From positions 17,559 to 81,558 of IMG/VR virus record IMGVR_UViG_3300033148_003055: a stretch of DNA of 64,000 bases. One strand, written 5' to 3'. The position numbers and the translations under genes are program-made. The DNA comes from a virus. Positions 44,638-59,582 of the stretch are shown here, one piece after another (positions within the stretch are counted from its first letter, which is position 1; the number at the start of each line of letters is the position of its first letter). The notes beneath the pieces are model-generated. The model saw only the letters and a program-made list of their open reading frames with translations. It was not told the origin of the DNA and did no database searches.

Positions 44638-45192
44638 TCACCCCTCCGTCACATGGTACTTAACCATGTGACTATTCGATCCGCTCCACGGTGATCTTAA
44701 CGTTGCACTTGTCGCCGCCCTTAAGACCGCACGCTTCCTCAAGTGCTTGTCCTAGAGGCCCAAGCGCGTCAACGTGAATGCACCACGGCGACGTGAACCC
44801 GTGCCATAGACCTACTTGGTTGCACTTGATGCCCAGCCCAAGCACGAGCCGCCTCTCTCCGCAACTGGCCGCCATTGCGTCCTTGCCAACCTCGGCCTCG
44901 AAACTGGTCGCCATCATTCCTCCTTGCCGCTCGATGGTTGCGTCCTCATGCCTTTGGCCCGATATGGAAGTCGCATGTGCCGTCAGCCTCACACGCTTCC
45001 GGGTTGCACGGCACCTTAACCCCGGCATGGCAATTGCCGCAATCCTCGCAGCACGTCATGATGTCATTGAGTCCACAGCCGCAGTCCTCGCCGTAAAGCC
45101 CGTCGTAGCCGTTCGCCTTCAGGTACTCATAGACGATCTCGTATACCGTAGGGTTCTTCATCTCGCCTCCCGTTCTGCACACTTCTGCATGG

Positions 45193-46788
45193 CTAGTTAC
45201 CAAGTGCCTCCACCAATCGGAATACGTCCATCAACCCCCGCACGAACATCCGGTATTCGGTGCTCTGCTCCCGGCCACGCCGCAGGATGTATGCGGGGTG
45301 GACGAGGTGAATCGTATCGGGCCAGTGGGTCTTGCAGACCCGTTCGGCCTCCCGGCCCAGGGCGATGATGTAGACGGGTTTGACCGCCCGCTCGATCCGG
45401 TGGAGCCTCGGCCAACAGGCCATCTGCTCCTCCTGGGTCGGGGGGCGGTTGTCGCCGCGCTTGCGATCTGTGGGCCGGCAGTTGTGAACCACCGCACCAG
45501 CCGTGACGAAGTTGTGCGCCTCTTCAACGTCGATACAATACACCAAATCTGGCGTCGCGTCGTACGGTACCACGATCGCCGGTTTGAAATAACTGGTGGC
45601 CGGCTCTGGAGCGTAATACTCTTCGCAGAATTTCACATCCCGGAGGTTGGGCGGAAGCTTGTACTTCAAAGTCGGTGGTACGAGGTGGGCGATCTCAGTC
45701 AAGAAACGCCTCGCGTCTACGGAGCGAAAGTACAACCTCCATGTTGCGAACTTCTTGATCCTAGGGCTGTACCCGCGTCGTTCGAACTCAGCCTTCGCGA
45801 TTTCTGCATTGGCCTCTTCGAGGGGCAGTGCGAACTCAAGACCCTTCGACTGTCCTCCCTTGTTAGCCCGCTGGTGGCCATCGTCCAAGAACCAAACAGC
45901 CAATCCCAACGGACCTAGCTTGCGGAGAGACTCAGGGTGGAACACCTTCCCATGAGGATACCAGGTCTTCCAAAGGTCGCGCATGAACGGGCACAGTTTG
46001 GTCTCGGTACGCAGTATCACGTGACACGGCTCCAGGGTTTGGTGCCGGGCAGAAACCCTTGAATCAAACCCGTCTAAGACTGCGGCCTTTAGACGAAGAT
46101 ACTCAGCTTGTCGTTCGGAATGGGATATTGCAAATTGCCCAAATGAGCTAACGGTTCCATCCCCAAGCATAGAGCCTATGATAATCTGCTCTGCTCGAGG
46201 TCCAGGTGCTGGGGTCCCTGTCGATACCAAATCCCCGTCCCTGATTTCGGCGGCAGGTATCCACCCCCGTGAAGTTGAGACGAGATGATCCTCCGTCAAT
46301 CGAACCCCGGTGAACCCCTTGGGGTTACCTCTTATCCCTTCAAAACTCAAGTGCAGCAACTTCCTACCATCTCTACGAGTTCGGTGCCAGCCTACGATTT
46401 CTCTTAGAGCGAGTTCGCCGTTTGGAAGTACACAATGAACGCGACCAGACCATCGATGTTTCACGATCCAGTTGATCCGCTTTGGGCCTTCTTCGGTCCG
46501 CACTTGAGCATATCCGTCTAAGCACGCTACACTATTTGTTATGAAGTAGGTCGGGGTGAAGTCCACCTTGTCGCCGGCGAGCTCGATAGCTCCGTGGAGC
46601 AGGCGTCCGGACGGACCGACGAACGGACGGCCCATGAGGTCCTCATTCTTCCCTGGGGCCTCCCCGACGAAGAGCAGGTCCGCCGGCAGGTCACCCTCAC
46701 CGAGGACGATCTTCCGGCGGAACTCCGCCAGGCCGCACCGGGTACACGTCCCGAAGTCAGCCTTGAACTTTTTCCCTAGCTTCTTCAT
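45193..46788 (-). CDS. Uracil-DNA glycosylase family 4 with intein
   Basis: CTRC, VGEAPG, GRPFVGPSG, TNSVA/CRP, HPAY. Confidence 0.9.
   Translation of the reverse strand: MKKLGKKFKADFGTCTRCGLAEFRRKIVLGEGDLPADLLFVGEAPGKNEDLMGRPFVGPSGRLLHGAIELAGDKVDFTPTYFITNSVACLDGYAQVRTEEGPKRINWIVKHRWSGRVHCVLPNGELALREIVGWHRTRRDGRKLLHLSFEGIRGNPKGFTGVRLTEDHLVSTSRGWIPAAEIRDGDLVSTGTPAPGPRAEQIIIGSMLGDGTVSSFGQFAISHSERQAEYLRLKAAVLDGFDSRVSARHQTLEPCHVILRTETKLCPFMRDLWKTWYPHGKVFHPESLRKLGPLGLAVWFLDDGHQRANKGGQSKGLEFALPLEEANAEIAKAEFERRGYSPRIKKFATWRLYFRSVDARRFLTEIAHLVPPTLKYKLPPNLRDVKFCEEYYAPEPATSYFKPAIVVPYDATPDLVYCIDVEEAHNFVTAGAVVHNCRPTDRKRGDNRPPTQEEQMACWPRLHRIERAVKPVYIIALGREAERVCKTHWPDTIHLVHPAYILRRGREQSTEYRMFVRGLMDVFRLVEALGN
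45481..46524 (-). mobile_element. Intein (348 aa) with LAGLIDADG endonuclease
   Basis: CLDGYAQV start, LTEDH, IGSMLGDG, VWFLDDG, ends VVHN followed by Cys. Confidence 0.92.
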
Positions 46789-53817: not shown

Positions 53818-54807
53818 TCAGAGCTGACCTGCTCGGCCGCGCGAATCCGGGCGGTTCACCTGGGCGAGGATTGCGCGGATCGCGGGCCCGACTGGGAGGT
53901 TTACGAGTCCCGGGCATCCGGCCTGCCGGCAGACGTCCGCGTCCCAGCCGACGGCGCGTTGGTAGTGGCACGGCGCGGTGCAGCCGCCCTCCCGTTCGAC
54001 GGGCTCGGCCTGGACGACCAGGGCGTCGGGATAGTGCTTGCAGATCAAGCGGCCGTCCGTCGGGCCGAACACCGACACGCTCGGCGTCCGTACCGCCGCC
54101 GCCATGTGGAGCATCCCCGAGTCTGCGGTCACCATCACGTCCGCCGCGCTGGCGGCGTAGGCGAGGTGCTCCTGCTGGAGCTCTACGAGTTGGGGGACGT
54201 TCGTCCCGGCGACTTTGCAGAGCCCCACGAACACCGGCTCCAGACCGCCCGCCTTCAGAACGTCGGCGAGTTCCTTCCACTTTTCGAGAGGCCATGTTCT
54301 GGCCCGGCAGGTCGCGTGGGGTTGGAGCATGACGACGGGGCGCCGGGTGTCGACTCTTGCCGCGGCGATCATCCCGCGACCGAAACCATACTGCTCACGG
54401 GTGATCCCGATGAACTGGCACTCCGCTTCAGACACGGGGAGTCCGGCCGCCGCAAAGAAGCAGTCGAGCCGGTCCTTGGTCGGGCGCCCCTTCGTCTCGA
54501 CCTCGTGGTCCCATCCCGGGCAGAACATGTTGACGTACTTGTCACGTCGCCCGCCCCTTGCGAAGTACTCCCGCTCGCGGACGCCCTCCTCCCAGTTGGC
54601 CTTACGCTCATACCGATTATTCCACCTTATAGAGGTAGGGATAGGCCAGGCCTTGTCGACGCCAGCAACCATCTCTGCGAACGGTGCGTAATAGGAGAGG
54701 GTGAAGGCATCGACCTGCCAGCCGGCCTTCTGGAGCTTACGCGCGACCGCCGCGCAACGCAGAACATCACCCAGGCCGCCCCCTTCTCTACAAATCGCTA
54801 GGCGCAT
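53818..54807 (-). CDS. Glycosyltransferase family 9 (ADP-heptose transferase-like)
   Basis: GGLGDVL, RTWPLEKW, VTADSGMLHMAAAVRTPSVSVFGPT. Confidence 0.92.
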   Translation of the reverse strand: MRLAICREGGGLGDVLRCAAVARKLQKAGWQVDAFTLSYYAPFAEMVAGVDKAWPIPTSIRWNNRYERKANWEEGVREREYFARGGRRDKYVNMFCPGWDHEVETKGRPTKDRLDCFFAAAGLPVSEAECQFIGITREQYGFGRGMIAAARVDTRRPVVMLQPHATCRARTWPLEKWKELADVLKAGGLEPVFVGLCKVAGTNVPQLVELQQEHLAYAASAADVMVTADSGMLHMAAAVRTPSVSVFGPTDGRLICKHYPDALVVQAEPVEREGGCTAPCHYQRAVGWDADVCRQAGCPGLVNLPVGPAIRAILAQVNRPDSRGRAGQL

Positions 54808-55459
54808 AACGCTCCAAGATTTCCTTCGCCCACTTCACCATGTCGGAGACTCGCTGGCCGGGGAAGTGAGCGTCCCGTAGGCAGAGCTCGAGATTCTCTA
54901 TTCGGTTGTTACTCCGTATTCCGTTCTTATGATGGACTATCTCTTTTACGGTCAAGTAACGCCCGAGGGATTCTTCCATGACTAACCGGTGCTCTTGCAC
55001 GTAATTGTTGACCGCGTTTGGGTGCTCAGGACGATTGAGATAAACATACCCGTGATCGACTTTTCTTCCACCTGCCCAGGCGGGCCGGCACTTGCCTGAC
55101 GCTCCACAACTCCTGGTCTCGCCCTTAAACAACGAGTGTGCCGCGATGACTTTTTCAACTCCGCAGTCACACCTACAAAGCCAAGTCGCACTTCTATCTT
55201 TGTTGATGCCAACACGTTTCAGAACCAACAGCTTCCCGAAACGATTCCCTGTGATGTCGCGAGCGCGTACCGCGCGAACGCATCCACAGTGGGTGCTTGC
55301 ACCTTTCCTTAGAGCATTCCCGCGAACGAGCTTCTCTACTCCACAATCGCATCGGCACCACCACGCCGGTCCGCGGTTGAGCACCCCACGTCGCTCGAGG
55401 ACCGTCCATTTACCAAACTTTTTCCCGGTCAAGTCGATGTACGTGCCCGGTCTTGCCAT
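54788..55459 (-). CDS. HNH homing endonuclease
   Basis: Two DLTG.KFG...W.CRCDCG repeats; EHRLVME...VHHKNGIRSNNRIENLEL. Confidence 0.9.
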   Translation of the reverse strand: MARPGTYIDLTGKKFGKWTVLERRGVLNRGPAWWCRCDCGVEKLVRGNALRKGASTHCGCVRAVRARDITGNRFGKLLVLKRVGINKDRSATWLCRCDCGVEKVIAAHSLFKGETRSCGASGKCRPAWAGGRKVDHGYVYLNRPEHPNAVNNYVQEHRLVMEESLGRYLTVKEIVHHKNGIRSNNRIENLELCLRDAHFPGQRVSDMVKWAKEILERYAPSDL

Positions 55460-55468
55460 CTGAGTCTC

Positions 55469-56836
55469 CTACGGGCAGCACCCCTCGGTTTTGATACCGA
55501 TGAACCGCTTGACCTCGTCAGGCTCGAGCTCTGACAGAATCCAGAGCGCGTTCTCAATCCACATCTTCTTGATCGCACACTCCACCGGGTGAGGTTTCGT
55601 GAGCGGGTATCCACCGACCAGGGAATACTCGCGACACCCGCCCCCGCACACCCACCGCAGATCACAGTCCGAGCATCCATCCCTGGCGTAGAATCTGTTC
55701 TCCATCCACTTGCACCGGTCTGCCTCGCGCAGACCGTCCCAGACATCACCGATCTTCGTAGGGCCCTCGCGGTGACAGGCGAAGACGTTGCCGTCCGCGT
55801 TCACCGTGACGATCCCGACGCCAGCCCCGCACTCCGTGCAAGCGAACTGCTGAACGGCTAGTCGCCGAACCATATGCTCCATCTGCCGAAAGCCGGCCTT
55901 GTTCCCGTTCTTGATCCGACGGACGACCCACTCAGCGGCATTGTCGTACTGCTCCCTGAACTGACCGACGTTGTCCTCAGTGATGGCTAGGCCGTGCCCC
56001 TCCACCAAGGCGGCGCACCCGTCTTCGGTCAGGTTGACCGGCTCCACCGATACGCCGTCGGCCAGGCCCTCGTCGCAAAGTCCGTTCAGGTACTCAAGAC
56101 GATCTACGAGGTCGACGCCTTCACCCGTGAACGTCCCGCGGAGCGTAATTCCTTTGACCCCATCGAGGCCCTTCAGGTTTTTAAGGCCTTTGAGTACAGC
56201 GGCATGCGATCCGGAACCATCAGGAAAAACCCGGTACTTGTCGTGGTCCTTCGCATCGCCGTCTAGGGAGACGATAAAGGAGAACTTGTGCTCAGAGAGC
56301 CAACGGGCCTTGTCCGGGTTGAGCAATACACCGTTGGTCGTGACATGGAATTGTGCTCCGCAACCTCTCTGGGCCGCAAGCATTTCAACGGTCGCCACAA
56401 TCTCCTGCAGCCGACGCCAGGCTACGAGAGGTTCACCCCCGAAGAAGGAGATTCGCATGGGCGGGTTCCGGTCTGATTTTGGGTTGAAGGGGAAAAAGTT
56501 AAGCGCGCGTCGGGCGACACGCAACGGCATAGTCGGGAACTCATGATCGGGATTGTAGTTGCGGACGAAGCAATAGGAGCACCTCAGGGGGCAACCATGC
56601 GTCACGTTGAAGACGACCTGTCGGACGAAGCCCTTCTGGTTCCCATTGTACTGCGGTTGGAAATCGCACGGAGCGGGGTAGCGGTCCTCAATGACCTCCG
56701 CCGCGAGGAGAGAATTAGCGTCGATCACTAATGACTTGCCCCGCACCGTACATTCGTAAAGTCTCGGTGCGCTCACCGGGACTGTCTTGATTCCCTTCGG
56801 CCCGTCTCCATAACCTTCTAAGTTGAGTCTGCGCAT
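55469..56836 (-). CDS. Radical SAM/SPASM peptide maturase (anSME/ranthipeptide maturase-like)
   Basis: CPLRCSYC, FFGGEPL, TTNG, SLDG, SPASM CGAG...ACH...CSDC...CGGGC; GAGGAGG RBS before MRRLNL. Confidence 0.92.
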   Translation of the reverse strand: MRRLNLEGYGDGPKGIKTVPVSAPRLYECTVRGKSLVIDANSLLAAEVIEDRYPAPCDFQPQYNGNQKGFVRQVVFNVTHGCPLRCSYCFVRNYNPDHEFPTMPLRVARRALNFFPFNPKSDRNPPMRISFFGGEPLVAWRRLQEIVATVEMLAAQRGCGAQFHVTTNGVLLNPDKARWLSEHKFSFIVSLDGDAKDHDKYRVFPDGSGSHAAVLKGLKNLKGLDGVKGITLRGTFTGEGVDLVDRLEYLNGLCDEGLADGVSVEPVNLTEDGCAALVEGHGLAITEDNVGQFREQYDNAAEWVVRRIKNGNKAGFRQMEHMVRRLAVQQFACTECGAGVGIVTVNADGNVFACHREGPTKIGDVWDGLREADRCKWMENRFYARDGCSDCDLRWVCGGGCREYSLVGGYPLTKPHPVECAIKKMWIENALWILSELEPDEVKRFIGIKTEGCCP

Positions 56837-56861
56837 CCTGTCCTCCTCGCTAGAGTTCTCA

Positions 56862-59582
56862 TTATTCGAGTCCCGTCTGGCACTGCCCGGCCTCGCACTC
56901 GACCTCACAGTTACCTTGACACTGGCACTGGCACGTGATGACGCATGACTCCCCGCCTCCGCACCCCTGATCGGAGCAGGCGCACTTAGCCTGGTCTTGC
57001 GTCTCGCATCCAGCCTGGCACCCCGGTTCACATGCATCGGTGCAACTGCTTTGGCAAGAGATTATACACGGAGTATTGCATGAGGTCTCAAGCGCGGTCT
57101 CGGTGCCCGTCGTCGAGCATCCCCAGAGGTCCCCCGTCTCGACCCACTCGCAGTCGTCCGCCATCGCCGCTGTTGCGCAGATCAGCTCTGCCGCGGTAAC
57201 ACAAGTTAGGCTGCACATTCCCTGGGCCGCCGTCTCGCATACCCCCGAGCACGCAGACTCCTGCATCGACGTCTCACACCCGCCCGTCTCACAGAACGCC
57301 TGACACGAGTCCTTGTCCCACCCCCACCAGCCGTTCGCCTTGTAGGTGATCTCGTCCATCTGACCGTCTTTGCCGACGCCAGGGGTGTGGACGACCTCTA
57401 GGATGGTGACCTCAGCGTTGGTCCCGGCGTAGTTGGCGACATCAAGCAGGAGGGTGTCGTTGCGCTGGAGCTCGATCGTGTCCAGGTAGTCCTTCCACTC
57501 GTAGATCGGCAGGACCTCCTTCAGGCGATTGAGCCAGAAGTTCGCAATCGTCTGGACCTGCGGCCTAGACGTCACCGCCCAGCAGTTCATGTCGAGCTCT
57601 TTGCGCCCGAACGCGGCCTCCGCCGTCGCGTCGGTCACGACCAGTTCGTGCTCTTCGTTCTCCTGCATCCAGGTCGCCCGGACCCCGGTGCGAACCTCGG
57701 ACTCGAAGTCGATGCGGGACTTGACGAAGGAGTCCATGAGGCGCTTGTTGTCGGTGATCGTCGCGACGCTGGACTGCGGACCGTTGACGAGCCAGCGAAG
57801 GAACGCCACGCCGTCGTCCCAGTTGATCGACGTCCGGCACTGGAAGGCGAGGTCCTGAGCGATCTGCATGAGCTTGCCTGGACGTGTCAGGGAGAACCCG
57901 AAGACGAAGCCCTCCATCCGCCCTTCGGCGTCGGTGAAGGAGGTGTCGTCGGTCTCCCCGGCGCTCACACCTCCGACCGTCTCGAGGAAGTCCTTGATGA
58001 TGAGGGCCGGGTTGGTGATCACGGTCCCGGAGCCGTCACCGCTATCGTCGATCCCGGCGATGTCCACGAAGAGATCGTCGCTCCCGAAGTCGTACAGACC
58101 ATTGAGGGCCGGGGGGAGCCCGGTGAAGGTTATCGTCGTGCAGTTGTGCCCGAGCTCGGCGGAGAACTGGCTGTCGTTCAGGTCGACCGCGAACATGCTC
58201 GGCTCGATTACCGCCCACCCGTCCGTCTCGTTGCCGATCGCGCCGGAGACCTGAGACGGCGGGGTGAGCCCGGGGTCGACGCCTTCTGCGACAACGAGCT
58301 GTCCTGGCAACATGACCTGAAGTCTGGGCGCCGCCCCGAAGTTCATGAAGCCGTACGACCCGGCGGCGAGGCCGTCCATGTCATCCAGCATCATGTTCCG
58401 TGCACGCCGCTTCCCGTGCCCGAACACCGCGTCCACCCGTTCGCTGGGGTAGTCGTTGACAATGTAGACGTACTCGCCCAGCACCTCGAAGACCTGCTCG
58501 CCTTCCTGATGTGGGGTCGCCTTCGTGACGATGAGGGCGCCGGTGGCCGACGGGACATGCAGGACCATTCCACAGCCGAAGAGGTCGTCTGAGGCGACGT
58601 CGTCGAACTCCCCGACCCACCCCTGGTAGTAGAAGGGCATGTGGACTTCGATCTCGCCGCCCGCCGTCGAGCGGAGAATGCGCCGGGTCTGCCAGCCGAG
58701 TGTGCCGTCGTGCCCCTCGACCTGAATCTTGAGGAAGTAGCCGACGTACTGGCCGTCGACGCCAGTGAAGTTCGTCGCGAAGACGCGGGGGTTGGCGGCT
58801 GTGCCGGAGATGGAGCCGTTGTCAATCGTAGCGCCTCTGGCGGTCGGGGTGAAGGCGCGACCGGTGAAGGTGCCCGTGATGTGCTCGCGCCCGACGCGGA
58901 TCGTGATCTCTGTCGGGTCCTGCGTGAAGTCCTCGCCGCCCTCGATGTAGAACGTCTCGCTGGTGTCGGTGCCGCGAATCTCGTTGAGCAGGCGCCCGCG
59001 CTTCCCGCCCTTTGCCATGACCGTCGGTACCTTCTTCTTGTTCCCATAGACGATCGGGACCATGCGCCCCTCGTGGGCGTTGAGTACGTCGGGGAAGTCG
59101 TCCTTGATGACGAAGTTGGCGAAGTCTCGGTCGTAATGGGAGCCCATGTCGACGACGTCGAACTGAAGCTCGCGCCCGTCCTCGACCCACTGCATCGGCC
59201 CTGCAATCGTTCCCTTGAAGATGGTCGTCAGGTCAGCCTCGACCAGGCCGTCGAAGTATTGGTAGATCGTGACCGTCTTGTTCTCGAGGTCGACCGAGTT
59301 GAGGTTGTCGTGCAGGGCGAGGTCGTTGTCCATGAGGCGGATGCTGACGTCGCCGACCGACGGCTTCGGGTGAAGCGACGTCTTGGCGTAGATGCGTCCC
59401 CAGGAGTTGACGCGGGCCTCCGCGTTGTCCCAGGTCGACGCGTCCCCAGTTCCGATGGTCTGGTCCGAGTACCACTTCGTCCCGACGGCGCCGCCCCATT
59501 CCACCTTGACGATGTTGATGGGCTTGGTGCCCTTGGTGAGGTTCTTCTTCGTCGTGAAGTCGCCTGTTAGTGTGCGGGCCAT
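56862..59582 (-). CDS. Tail tip/hub protein with Cys-rich C-terminal extension
   Basis: VPIVYG, ITNPALIIKDFL, phage tail hub pattern; last 147 aa contain 27 Cys. Confidence 0.75.
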   Translation of the reverse strand: MARTLTGDFTTKKNLTKGTKPINIVKVEWGGAVGTKWYSDQTIGTGDASTWDNAEARVNSWGRIYAKTSLHPKPSVGDVSIRLMDNDLALHDNLNSVDLENKTVTIYQYFDGLVEADLTTIFKGTIAGPMQWVEDGRELQFDVVDMGSHYDRDFANFVIKDDFPDVLNAHEGRMVPIVYGNKKKVPTVMAKGGKRGRLLNEIRGTDTSETFYIEGGEDFTQDPTEITIRVGREHITGTFTGRAFTPTARGATIDNGSISGTAANPRVFATNFTGVDGQYVGYFLKIQVEGHDGTLGWQTRRILRSTAGGEIEVHMPFYYQGWVGEFDDVASDDLFGCGMVLHVPSATGALIVTKATPHQEGEQVFEVLGEYVYIVNDYPSERVDAVFGHGKRRARNMMLDDMDGLAAGSYGFMNFGAAPRLQVMLPGQLVVAEGVDPGLTPPSQVSGAIGNETDGWAVIEPSMFAVDLNDSQFSAELGHNCTTITFTGLPPALNGLYDFGSDDLFVDIAGIDDSGDGSGTVITNPALIIKDFLETVGGVSAGETDDTSFTDAEGRMEGFVFGFSLTRPGKLMQIAQDLAFQCRTSINWDDGVAFLRWLVNGPQSSVATITDNKRLMDSFVKSRIDFESEVRTGVRATWMQENEEHELVVTDATAEAAFGRKELDMNCWAVTSRPQVQTIANFWLNRLKEVLPIYEWKDYLDTIELQRNDTLLLDVANYAGTNAEVTILEVVHTPGVGKDGQMDEITYKANGWWGWDKDSCQAFCETGGCETSMQESACSGVCETAAQGMCSLTCVTAAELICATAAMADDCEWVETGDLWGCSTTGTETALETSCNTPCIISCQSSCTDACEPGCQAGCETQDQAKCACSDQGCGGGESCVITCQCQCQGNCEVECEAGQCQTGLE

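Follow-up and report, generated by a model that had tools for sequence, protein, structure and literature searches.

A cysteine-repeat module on a phage tail-tip protein and the adjacent radical SAM/SPASM enzyme that may staple it with thioethers

The window considered here is a 64,000-nucleotide stretch of viral DNA, bases 17559-81558 of IMG/VR record IMGVR_UViG_3300033148_003055, which is complete at 81,558 bp and bears direct terminal repeats; the G+C content of the phage genome is about 62%. Its block of tail genes closes with a minus-strand quartet encoding a 906-amino-acid (aa) tail-tip protein, a 455-aa radical S-adenosylmethionine (radical SAM, rSAM) enzyme of the SPASM type, a 223-aa HNH protein, and a 329-aa GT9 glycosyltransferase. 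The tail-tip protein ends in a Cys-dense module, and the pairing of such a tail protein with such an enzyme is real and conserved. As to what the pairing does, the module is probably stapled by thioethers within one chain and serves as a structural element of the phage tail.

The observations reported below concern gene anatomy, the family affinity of the enzyme, co-occurrence, and the sequence rules of the repeat; what we build on them is a proposal about the substrate, the thioether product, the residues paired (i/i+5), and the structural role. In this proposal, the rSAM/SPASM enzyme would act on the Cys module of the phage's own J-like tail-tip protein, most likely inside the infected cell, while the tail is being assembled or beforehand, and would install non-reducible sulfur-to-carbon bridges of the thioether, ranthionine type. 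The likely reacting pair is a Cys at position i and a Glu or Gln five residues downstream. Six-residue rings would then overlap one another along the chain and brace the module covalently into a kind of rod, which would serve as the distal shaft or tip of the tail; in the window phage the rod would be terminal, and in relatives it would be a stalk joining the tip core to a further distal domain. The GT9 that travels with the enzyme probably also decorates the Cys region. The features on which the argument turns are, in window coordinates:

56862..59582, minus strand: lambda gpJ-like tail-tip protein, 906 aa, with a core of about residues 1-750 and a C-terminal Cys module (open reading frame [ORF], profile match)
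56865..57305, minus strand: Cys module, 147 aa with 27 Cys, a degenerate C-[E/Q]-x-x ladder with the C-terminus C-Q-T-G-L-E
56837..56861, minus strand: intergenic spacer of 25 nt with a GAGGAGGA ribosome-binding site before the ATG of the rSAM gene
55469..56836, minus strand: radical SAM/SPASM enzyme, 455 aa, predicted maturase of the Cys module (Pfam, NCBIfam, PDB 5WGG)

A Cys-dense module at the end of a gpJ-like protein

The rSAM gene begins 25 nt past the TAA stop of the tail-tip gene, behind the GAGGAGGA ribosome-binding site, and its product has both the CxxxCxxC motif and the SPASM cysteines; the initial annotation, which had placed an rSAM/SPASM gene 25 bp downstream, was thus correct. 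A recount gives the tail-tip protein 31 Cys, 4 in the first 759 aa and 27 in residues 760-906, in agreement with the 27 Cys first reported for the last 147 of 906 aa, and the string quoted from that region, CNTPCIISCQSSCTDACEPGCQAGC, is found at residues 835-859. The Cys had also been described as mostly CxxxC. The periodicity is there, but "mostly" is generous: 12 of the 26 Cys-to-Cys intervals are of 4 residues, 3 are of 5, and 3 are of 8, the remainder having other lengths. Across five tail-tip homologs, down to 33% identity, 14 Cys columns are invariant.

The density is not a matter of chance: of the 938 ORFs in the genome that are 25 aa or longer, that of the tail-tip protein alone reaches 9 Cys per 30 aa, the runner-up having 7. 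With no other ORF comparably Cys-dense, the tail-tip protein would be the sole candidate substrate of the enzyme in the 81.6-kb genome. Under the module, Tandem Repeats Finder reports no DNA tandem repeat except a trivial 15-nt hexamer repeat at 56920-56934; on this lack of a DNA-level repeat we reject, for the window phage, recent repeat expansion as the origin of the periodicity. The second most Cys-dense ORF of the genome, at 44949-45203 on the minus strand of the window, belongs to the early/replication region; it encodes 85 aa with 10 Cys, at most 7 per 30 aa (CGCG...CCEDCGNCH...), and is without the C-x4-E/Q pattern.

A profile built on residues 1-750, the tail-tip core, picks out lambda "Tip attachment protein J" (8iyk and 9e7m, E 9.4e-5), in a weak and partial match of only about 170 residues (query 510-676 against chain 328-499), and the protein weakly matches phrog_31 (central tail fiber J; E 7.9e-4). 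It is on this weak, partial similarity, together with the position of the gene in the tail module, that we call the protein gpJ-like. Lambda gpJ carries a C-terminal receptor-binding domain; in the window protein, the Cys module occupies the place of such a domain. Upstream of the tail-tip gene, a 1138-aa tailspike-like protein is encoded (PHROG), and in the related locus L007 a 645-aa ORF, tape-measure-like as judged by eye, precedes the tail-tip homolog. The J-like family comprises 2814 cluster representatives at E<=1e-3. Other searches with the protein were negative. Pfam and NCBIfam assign the full protein to no family, with no NCBIfam target family matching; Pfam finds nothing in the 156-aa Cys-rich tail at E<=10; the ESM Atlas gives no usable feature match for residues 745-906, and structural neighbors only at template-modeling (TM) scores of at most 0.34; tblastn against 50,697 cultured-phage records yields no match; and a first scan of viral contigs with the single tail-tip protein as query was likewise empty.

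Tail protein and enzyme travel together

The close homologs of the tail-tip protein (P0002-P0004, L001, and L002, 54-59% identity) all have longer modules, for example "...GCETSCQSAGCETVGCETCGCQTCGCETDCQTGCEVSCETGCETSCETECQ...", and the module is also present inside the tail proteins of P0005 (33% identity) and L007 (32%). In L002, the tail protein is 59% identical and has 43 Cys, and a 57%-identical rSAM gene overlaps the tail gene stop. For J-like proteins that have the module and are followed by visible DNA, an rSAM gene lies downstream in 9/9 cases (the window, L002, L094, L093, L088, L089, L032, L091, and L097), at distances from overlap to 6.7 kb; no homolog among the nine keeps the Cys tail without an rSAM neighbor.

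The same picture emerges from the enzyme side. An alignment of 47 relatives of the window rSAM led to 78 distinct viral loci, of which 30, at E<1e-30 to the window enzyme, collapse to 25 distinct loci, 23 of them showing at least 1.8 kb upstream. Of these 23 assessable loci, 20 have, upstream on the same strand, between one and three ORFs that reach 10 Cys per 60 aa or more and encode proteins of 16 to 151 Cys each (e.g., L011, 615 aa with 131 Cys; L020, 735 aa with 151; L023, 1999 aa with 104; and L037, 1525 aa with 105), while none of the 25 has an ORF of this density downstream of the rSAM gene. The three exceptions also have modules, shorter or more distant: L030 is a 164-kb record with two module proteins about 10 kb upstream on the same strand, and in L017 and L031 the modules are short, with 8 and 6 Cys per 60 aa, on proteins that are Tail_P2_I-like as judged by eye from an N-terminal LYxLLPxxxR motif. 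Counting such short or more distant modules, Cys-repeat tail proteins occur in 23/23 assessable loci. Starting from the tail side, an alignment of the core alone brought in L091/L092 (1001 aa and 69 Cys, with both rSAM and GT9 genes downstream) as well as L090 (58 Cys, where the contig ends). Of the 150 best J-like cluster representatives among the 2814, 68 reach 10 Cys per 60 aa or more directly behind the core. Co-occurrence of the Cys tail and the rSAM gene across phages, proposed at the outset as a check, is therefore found from both directions, which supports the proposed link between enzyme and substrate.

By way of control, an ORF of at least 200 aa and equal Cys density was found within +/-8 kb in only 4 of 79 cellular SCIFF-type loci. 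Those 79 are the rest of 80 kept cellular loci, a set from which the rarity of the phage-type cassette in cellular genomes is not deducible; the sole record of the 80 with that cassette is L097, a planctomycete metagenome-assembled genome contig (CAIUPP010000138.1, 87.6 kb, locus G+C 66.7%) that encodes a J-like protein of 1390 aa and 94 Cys and then, immediately, the rSAM. It is possible that L097 is a prophage or a binned phage, and it is the sole clue to a host. In G001, a 99% complete genome whose J-like protein has no module, neither an rSAM nor the repeat pattern was found; an rSAM was not matched in L090, L095, or L096 either, which is uninformative for contigs that are 14-23% complete. 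Among cellular genomes, a large Cys-dense protein occurs on the Paenibacillus sp. EC2-1 chromosome (L125:1-1035), as an open-ended 345-aa ORF with 74 Cys, 23 of them in 60 aa, about 7 kb from an rSAM of the SCIFF/PapB type.

Run boundaries point to a Cys/i+5 pair

Repeat statistics were taken over 37 carrier proteins with 1734 Cys in dense regions. Spacings of 4 and 5 make up 74.6% and 9.1% of the Cys-to-Cys intervals; the residue after Cys is E in 45%, Q in 30%, and T in 12%; and the remaining two repeat positions are small residues, with K, R, H, P, and W each below 1%. Family-wide, then, the module is a C-[E/Q/T]-x-x repeat. To locate its functional unit, the boundaries are more useful than the interior, with a run defined as at least 3 Cys at spacing 4 or 5, ends counted where no Cys follows in the next 9 residues, and starts where none stands in the preceding 9. 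At run ends, E/Q is found at +5 in 46/61, compared with 3/46 at +9 and 11-20% at +3, +4, and +6. At run starts, E/Q is found at +1 in 18/67, against 82% for internal Cys, and at -3 in 7/66, which is background level. The same asymmetry was obtained with 62 further J-like representatives unused in discovery (+5 at ends, 53/80; +1 at starts, 20/91; internal, 84%).

The simplest reading of these boundaries would be that Cys(i) and Glu/Gln(i+5) are a functional pair, in which case the Glu after the first Cys is partnerless and drifts, and one extra E/Q is kept past the last Cys. As the period is 4 and each ring would span 6 residues, neighboring rings would share two residues and make a continuous ladder. 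Two other pairings were tried and rejected. If Cys paired with E/Q at +1, that position should be conserved where runs begin, but 22-27% is observed; pairing with E/Q at -3, modeled on NxxC peptides, predicts E/Q before the first Cys, observed in 8-11%, and none after the last, where 66-75% is observed at +5.

In the window module, E/Q stands at +5 from 16/27 Cys and, following a 5-residue spacing, at +6 from another 2; shuffles of the module give 5.8 +/- 1.9 Cys with E/Q at +5, and 0/20,000 reach 16. Terminal modules place their last Cys 5 or 6 residues from the C-terminus in 20/33 proteins, typically as C-x4-[Q/E]. The window protein ends CQTGLE (56865-56882), and the partner of its last Cys would be the C-terminal residue, E906; PapB is reported to be capable of linking Cys to a C-terminal residue (PMC12373016). 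In L020 (1460-3664; 735 aa, 151 Cys), the repeat is composed mostly of C-T-x-G units (CTSG, CTAG, CTDG) instead of C-E/Q-x-x, and Thr may replace Glu/Gln as the partner residue there.

It could be argued that the module is an ordinary disulfide-rich or metal-binding fiber element, and that the rSAM and GT9 have another target, be it a cofactor, a small molecule, or part of the host envelope. Iron-sulfur or metal sites do occur in phage tail tips, as in lambda gpL, GT9 enzymes normally act on lipopolysaccharide, the contact between enzyme and tail protein is deduced from sequence, and L017, with its rSAM-GT9 fusion, has merely a short Cys module. We nevertheless regard this as quite improbable. 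The adjacency is tight and strand-specific on two unrelated tail scaffolds; besides the Cys proteins, rSAM, and GT9, there is no widely conserved neighbor family to supply an alternative substrate; and the joint absence of module and enzyme in G001 agrees with a functional link. Moreover, the repeat is without His and conserves E/Q/T instead of typical metal ligands, and an asymmetric rule at run boundaries is not expected of disulfides.

A relative of the ranthipeptide maturases

The rSAM cluster motif CxxxCxxC (C82/C86/C89) is invariant in the 47 relatives, and the SPASM-type Cys set (C274, C336-x17-C354, C388-x2-C391-x5-C397-x3-C401, and C420), including the motif C336..G349-x4-C354, is invariant or nearly so in the same alignment; in the SPASM subfamily, a C-terminal motif of seven Cys serves two auxiliary 4Fe-4S clusters. 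Pfam reports Radical_SAM (PF04055, 48.1 bits against a cutoff of 29.5) and Fer4_12, which places the enzyme in the radical SAM superfamily. The Pfam SPASM model PF13186 is not reported for it, so the SPASM assignment rests on the conserved Cys motif and on an alignment to PDB 5WGG that extends through residue 435, into the C-terminal domain of that structure. 5WGG, which we take to be the SCIFF maturase CteB (its database title is "Radical SAM domain protein"), is the closest solved structure, at E 6.9e-44 with the single protein and 6e-86 with a family profile, and rSAM residues 66-435 align with 5WGG 91-450. The first 65 or so residues align to nothing, and Pfam finds no domain in the first 80 aa at E<=10.

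In NCBIfam, the highest scores go to PapB (NF047865, 186.7 bits against a cutoff of 340), the SCIFF maturase (TIGR03974, 180.3 against 425), QhpD (TIGR03906, 162.4 against 453), and the nif11-peptide maturase (157); the CXXX-repeat maturase (TIGR04115, 81.8 against 350) and TIGR04463 (52.9 against 525) are far weaker. Nor was a small Cys peptide, such as the adjacent precursor of about 45 aa that goes with a SCIFF maturase, found near the rSAM gene among the ORFs of the genome. By these scores, the enzyme is related to the ranthipeptide maturases and does not qualify for PapB, SCIFF, QhpD, the CXXX-repeat maturases, or TIGR04463; since it fails every curated threshold and shows no detected RiPP (a peptide that is ribosomally synthesized and modified after translation) precursor recognition element (RRE), leader, or small precursor, we have not filed it in any named family. 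Among cultured-phage records, the enzyme matched 79, all below 60% identity, with at most 29% among full-length matches.

Two lines support the reading as a thioether maturase. PapB, the SCIFF maturase, and QhpD, the best matches, are all thioether-forming. In addition, PapB is reported to link Cys to an Asp or Glu lying C-terminal, at i+1 to i+7 (PMC12373016), and the order and distance of the Cys(i)/E,Q(i+5) pair fall within that range, as would fit thioether rings.

Other chemistry on the same module is conceivable, and co-occurrence is silent on which bond forms: the enzyme might make sactionine bonds from sulfur to alpha carbon, inter-chain links in a trimeric fiber, or a conversion of Cys to another residue, possibly as a handle for GT9. 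The enzyme falls below the cutoffs of all characterized families, its weaker matches include the sactipeptide and sulfatase maturases RumMC (95 bits) and anSME (75 bits) and, among structures, PDB 4k36, and some modules adjoin collagen-like, trimer-forming repeats, where inter-chain staples make sense. However, it is with the three ranthionine-forming families and 5WGG that the enzyme matches best over its full length; its similarity to the sactipeptide and sulfatase maturases lies mainly in the N-terminal rSAM core. The conserved E/Q/T partner likewise fits the side-chain acceptors of QhpC, PapA, and SCIFF, Thr being the acceptor in SCIFF. Such alternatives are therefore unlikely in our judgment.

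Several points weigh against thioether stapling. The argument is made throughout from gene neighborhood and sequence, and the enzyme scores below every curated NCBIfam cutoff. An RRE in the enzyme N-terminus, which the initial annotation had suggested looking for, was not detected by Pfam on that region, where 65 or so residues, and residues 1-90 of 5WGG, stay unaligned, although a diverged RRE is possible; no leader-like element was seen either. In a FastTree of 53 enzymes, a branch with Shimodaira-Hasegawa-like support of 96 sets 26 phage-type enzymes apart and 16 cellular SCIFF-type enzymes group with support of 100, but the phage clade was picked by similarity to the window rSAM, so that the separation is partly built in and the tree would mainly show the coherence of that clade. 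The window module is degenerate, with 9/27 Cys lacking E/Q at +5 or +6, and the i/i+5 rule could stem, with no cross-link at all, from a metal-binding unit or a non-covalent structural one. The absent/absent control is one near-complete genome, G001, and the other module-less homologs sit on fragments or come without genomic context, which leaves the negative side of the co-occurrence table thin. Finally, as far as the accessible text goes, PapB acceptors are acidic only, and Gln (30%) and Thr (12%) as acceptors need other precedents.

Where the module sits

The carriers span two unrelated tail scaffolds, the J-like proteins and proteins with a Tail_P2_I baseplate domain (27.2 bits, above the cutoff, in L029; just below it in L012 and L018), and L011, L025, L033, and L035 have ORFs that are nearly pure repeat. 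Candidate substrates range from 72 to 1999 aa, most of them above 200 aa. In the 37 carriers, the module is terminal in 27, internal in 7, with 213-622 aa following, and intermediate in the remaining 3; Pfam has no match for the seven distal domains that follow internal modules. The module gives way to Pro-Thr linkers in L007 and L024, and in three Tail_P2_I-like proteins it runs straight into collagen-like Gly-X-Y repeats (GPS, GDT, or GEQ units), which suggests that it sits there at the start of a trimeric fiber shaft:

L177:718-2337, minus strand: collagen-adjoining module protein (on the record of L030)
L017:312-2117: collagen-adjoining module protein
L031:117-1574: collagen-adjoining module protein

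These positions bear on the two outcomes first envisaged for the module, a stapled structural element and a peptide released from the virion. In the second, the C-terminal module would be a true RiPP core, cleaved from the tail protein and released in modified form as a toxin or signal. A C-terminal position in 27/37 carriers is compatible with this, and some distant viral rSAMs (25-29% identity) do lie behind paired ORFs of 68-119 aa with 17-20 Cys, in the classical small-precursor layout:

L039:7510-7972: pair of small Cys ORFs before a distant viral rSAM
L040:4075-4540: pair of small Cys ORFs before a distant viral rSAM
L043:7500-7983: pair of small Cys ORFs before a distant viral rSAM

Release is nonetheless very unlikely for the modules at issue. 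They lie mid-protein in the 7 carriers with distal domains, they reach 151 Cys in 735 aa, far beyond RiPP size, and the conserved core continues directly into the module, with no cleavage motif noticed by eye. Across 26 neighborhoods, no conserved protease, transporter/exporter, or separate RRE gene was seen near the rSAM, and the general marks of a RiPP system, i.e., a short leader-bearing precursor, an RRE, and proteolytic release, are not found. Internal modules and the lack of a conserved protease or exporter thus favor a shaft or tip element over a released RiPP, and of the two initial alternatives it is the stapled structural element that we retain.

Precedents and significance

SCIFF substrates are peptides of about 45 aa with six Cys. 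The SCIFF system (CteB, also ScfB; TIGR03974; 5WGG) resembles that of the phage in offering the closest structure and in the rSAM triad, the SPASM Cys, and a Cys-rich substrate with CxxxC spacing. It differs in score (180 against 425 bits), in identity (27-33%), in that the phage enzymes form a separate clade and leave 5WGG residues 1-90 unmatched, and in that a small peptide is modified, as opposed to virion proteins of 300-2000 aa as candidate substrates here. The maturase of freyrasin, PapB (NF047865), is the best NCBIfam match, and the i/i+5 rule is inside its range; its substrate, PapA, is described as six CSANDA-type motifs behind an RRE-bound leader (PMC12373016). Unlike PapA, the phage system has no leader or RRE that we could see, uses Glu/Gln/Thr for Asp, and would have overlapping rings in tens to more than 100 repeats.

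Two further systems bring the comparison to proteins. QhpD, a SPASM rSAM enzyme, makes Cys-Glu and Cys-Asp thioethers in QhpC, the Cys-Glu as an S-C-gamma bond (PMC13692751); like the proposed phage substrate, QhpC stays in a larger assembly, and QhpD (TIGR03906) is the third-best NCBIfam match at 162 bits. It differs in having three cross-links in a small, leader-bearing enzyme subunit with no repeat ladder, neither viral nor structural. With QhpD/QhpC, the nearest published protein-sized precedent is CrpC/CrpA of Methanococcus voltae, a Cys-rich repeat protein beside a SPASM rSAM, for which ranthionine cross-links have been shown experimentally (Dieter et al. 2026, PMC13692751). CrpA is, in contrast, archaeal and cellular, with a 17-residue repeat, a C-x-x-Q/D motif, and a leader-like N-terminus (PMC13692751). 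Last, the CXXX-repeat system (TIGR04115) is similar in that its targets are CXXX repeats and different in that the window rSAM scores 81.8 against 350 bits.

The initial annotation knew of no characterized example of the arrangement, and the full-text literature, with supplementary gene-cluster tables outside the search, likewise yielded no account of phage tail proteins being modified by an rSAM enzyme; look-ups within PMC12373016 and PMC12801897 gave none either. Neither PMC13692751 nor the rSAM-RiPP compendium PMC10288494 contains the word "phage", their supplements lying outside the search. Thioether stapling by enzymes is known among natural products that are small peptides, and the protein cases found are few, namely QhpC and CrpA (2026); of thioether stapling of a virus particle, no report was found in the full-text literature outside supplements. 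If the proposal is true, phage tail fibers join the substrates of RiPP-type enzymes, and a large set of unannotated Cys-dense phage proteins, in at least 68 of the 150 closest J-like clusters, would be explained. It would also suggest a way in which phages might keep receptor-binding organelles stable where disulfides fail, and the product could serve as a design element for rigid, reduction-proof protein rods. The fullest version of the proposal is a new protein material in which every fourth residue is Cys, each thioether-bonded to Glu/Gln(i+5), with tens to more than 100 overlapping macrocycles forming a continuous redox-insensitive ladder, possibly glycosylated by GT9, as the shaft or tip on at least 2 unrelated tail scaffolds; that version we put forward only tentatively, and would sooner expect it to fail in some part than to hold in all.

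Other members of the cassette

Clustering of the ORFs around the rSAM gene in 26 loci gives two wide groups, one of rSAM and GT9 (26 loci), which fall into one cluster because fusions exist, and one of Cys proteins (24 loci); the next commonest neighbor family is seen in 6/26. In the window, the remaining two genes of the quartet are:

54788..55459, minus strand: free-standing HNH endonuclease, 223 aa, between the rSAM and GT9 genes (Pfam HNH_3, 42.9 bits; PHROG HNH families)
53818..54807, minus strand: GT9 (heptosyltransferase-like) glycosyltransferase, 329 aa, the third conserved member of the cassette (PF01075)

The window GT9 scores 63.5 bits with PF01075, against a cutoff of 22, and so belongs to GT9; it is below the cutoffs of all heptosyltransferase equivalogs and matches heptosyltransferase I in the PDB at E 4.8e-7. 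A GT9 homolog lies within 5 kb downstream of the rSAM in 19/26 loci, and in the listed related loci that have one, the GT9 gene comes directly or a few hundred nucleotides after the rSAM gene. In L017, the two are fused by Pfam, and among 120 listed homologs, 5 (P0038, P0039, P0040, P0046, and P0049; 775-794 aa) have rSAM and GT9 domains in one protein.

The HNH gene that separates rSAM from GT9 in the window has no match in the other loci among L087-L096 and is probably a homing insertion. Inteins (Intein_splicing/Hint) with HNH or LAGLIDADG are present in four rSAM genes, and the rSAM gene looks like a repeated target of homing elements:

L035:7911-10448: intein-bearing rSAM gene
L037:7962-12422: intein-bearing rSAM gene
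L030:7809-10394: intein-bearing rSAM gene
L027:6720-9146: intein-bearing rSAM gene

A further arrangement was encountered at L072:10714-13275 and L076:9501-11555. Downstream of a distant viral rSAM (22% identity), at about 1.7 kb, come 3-4 ORFs in tandem, of 190-277 aa, whose 12 Cys apiece cluster toward the C-terminus; seemingly this is another system of Cys proteins and an rSAM enzyme.

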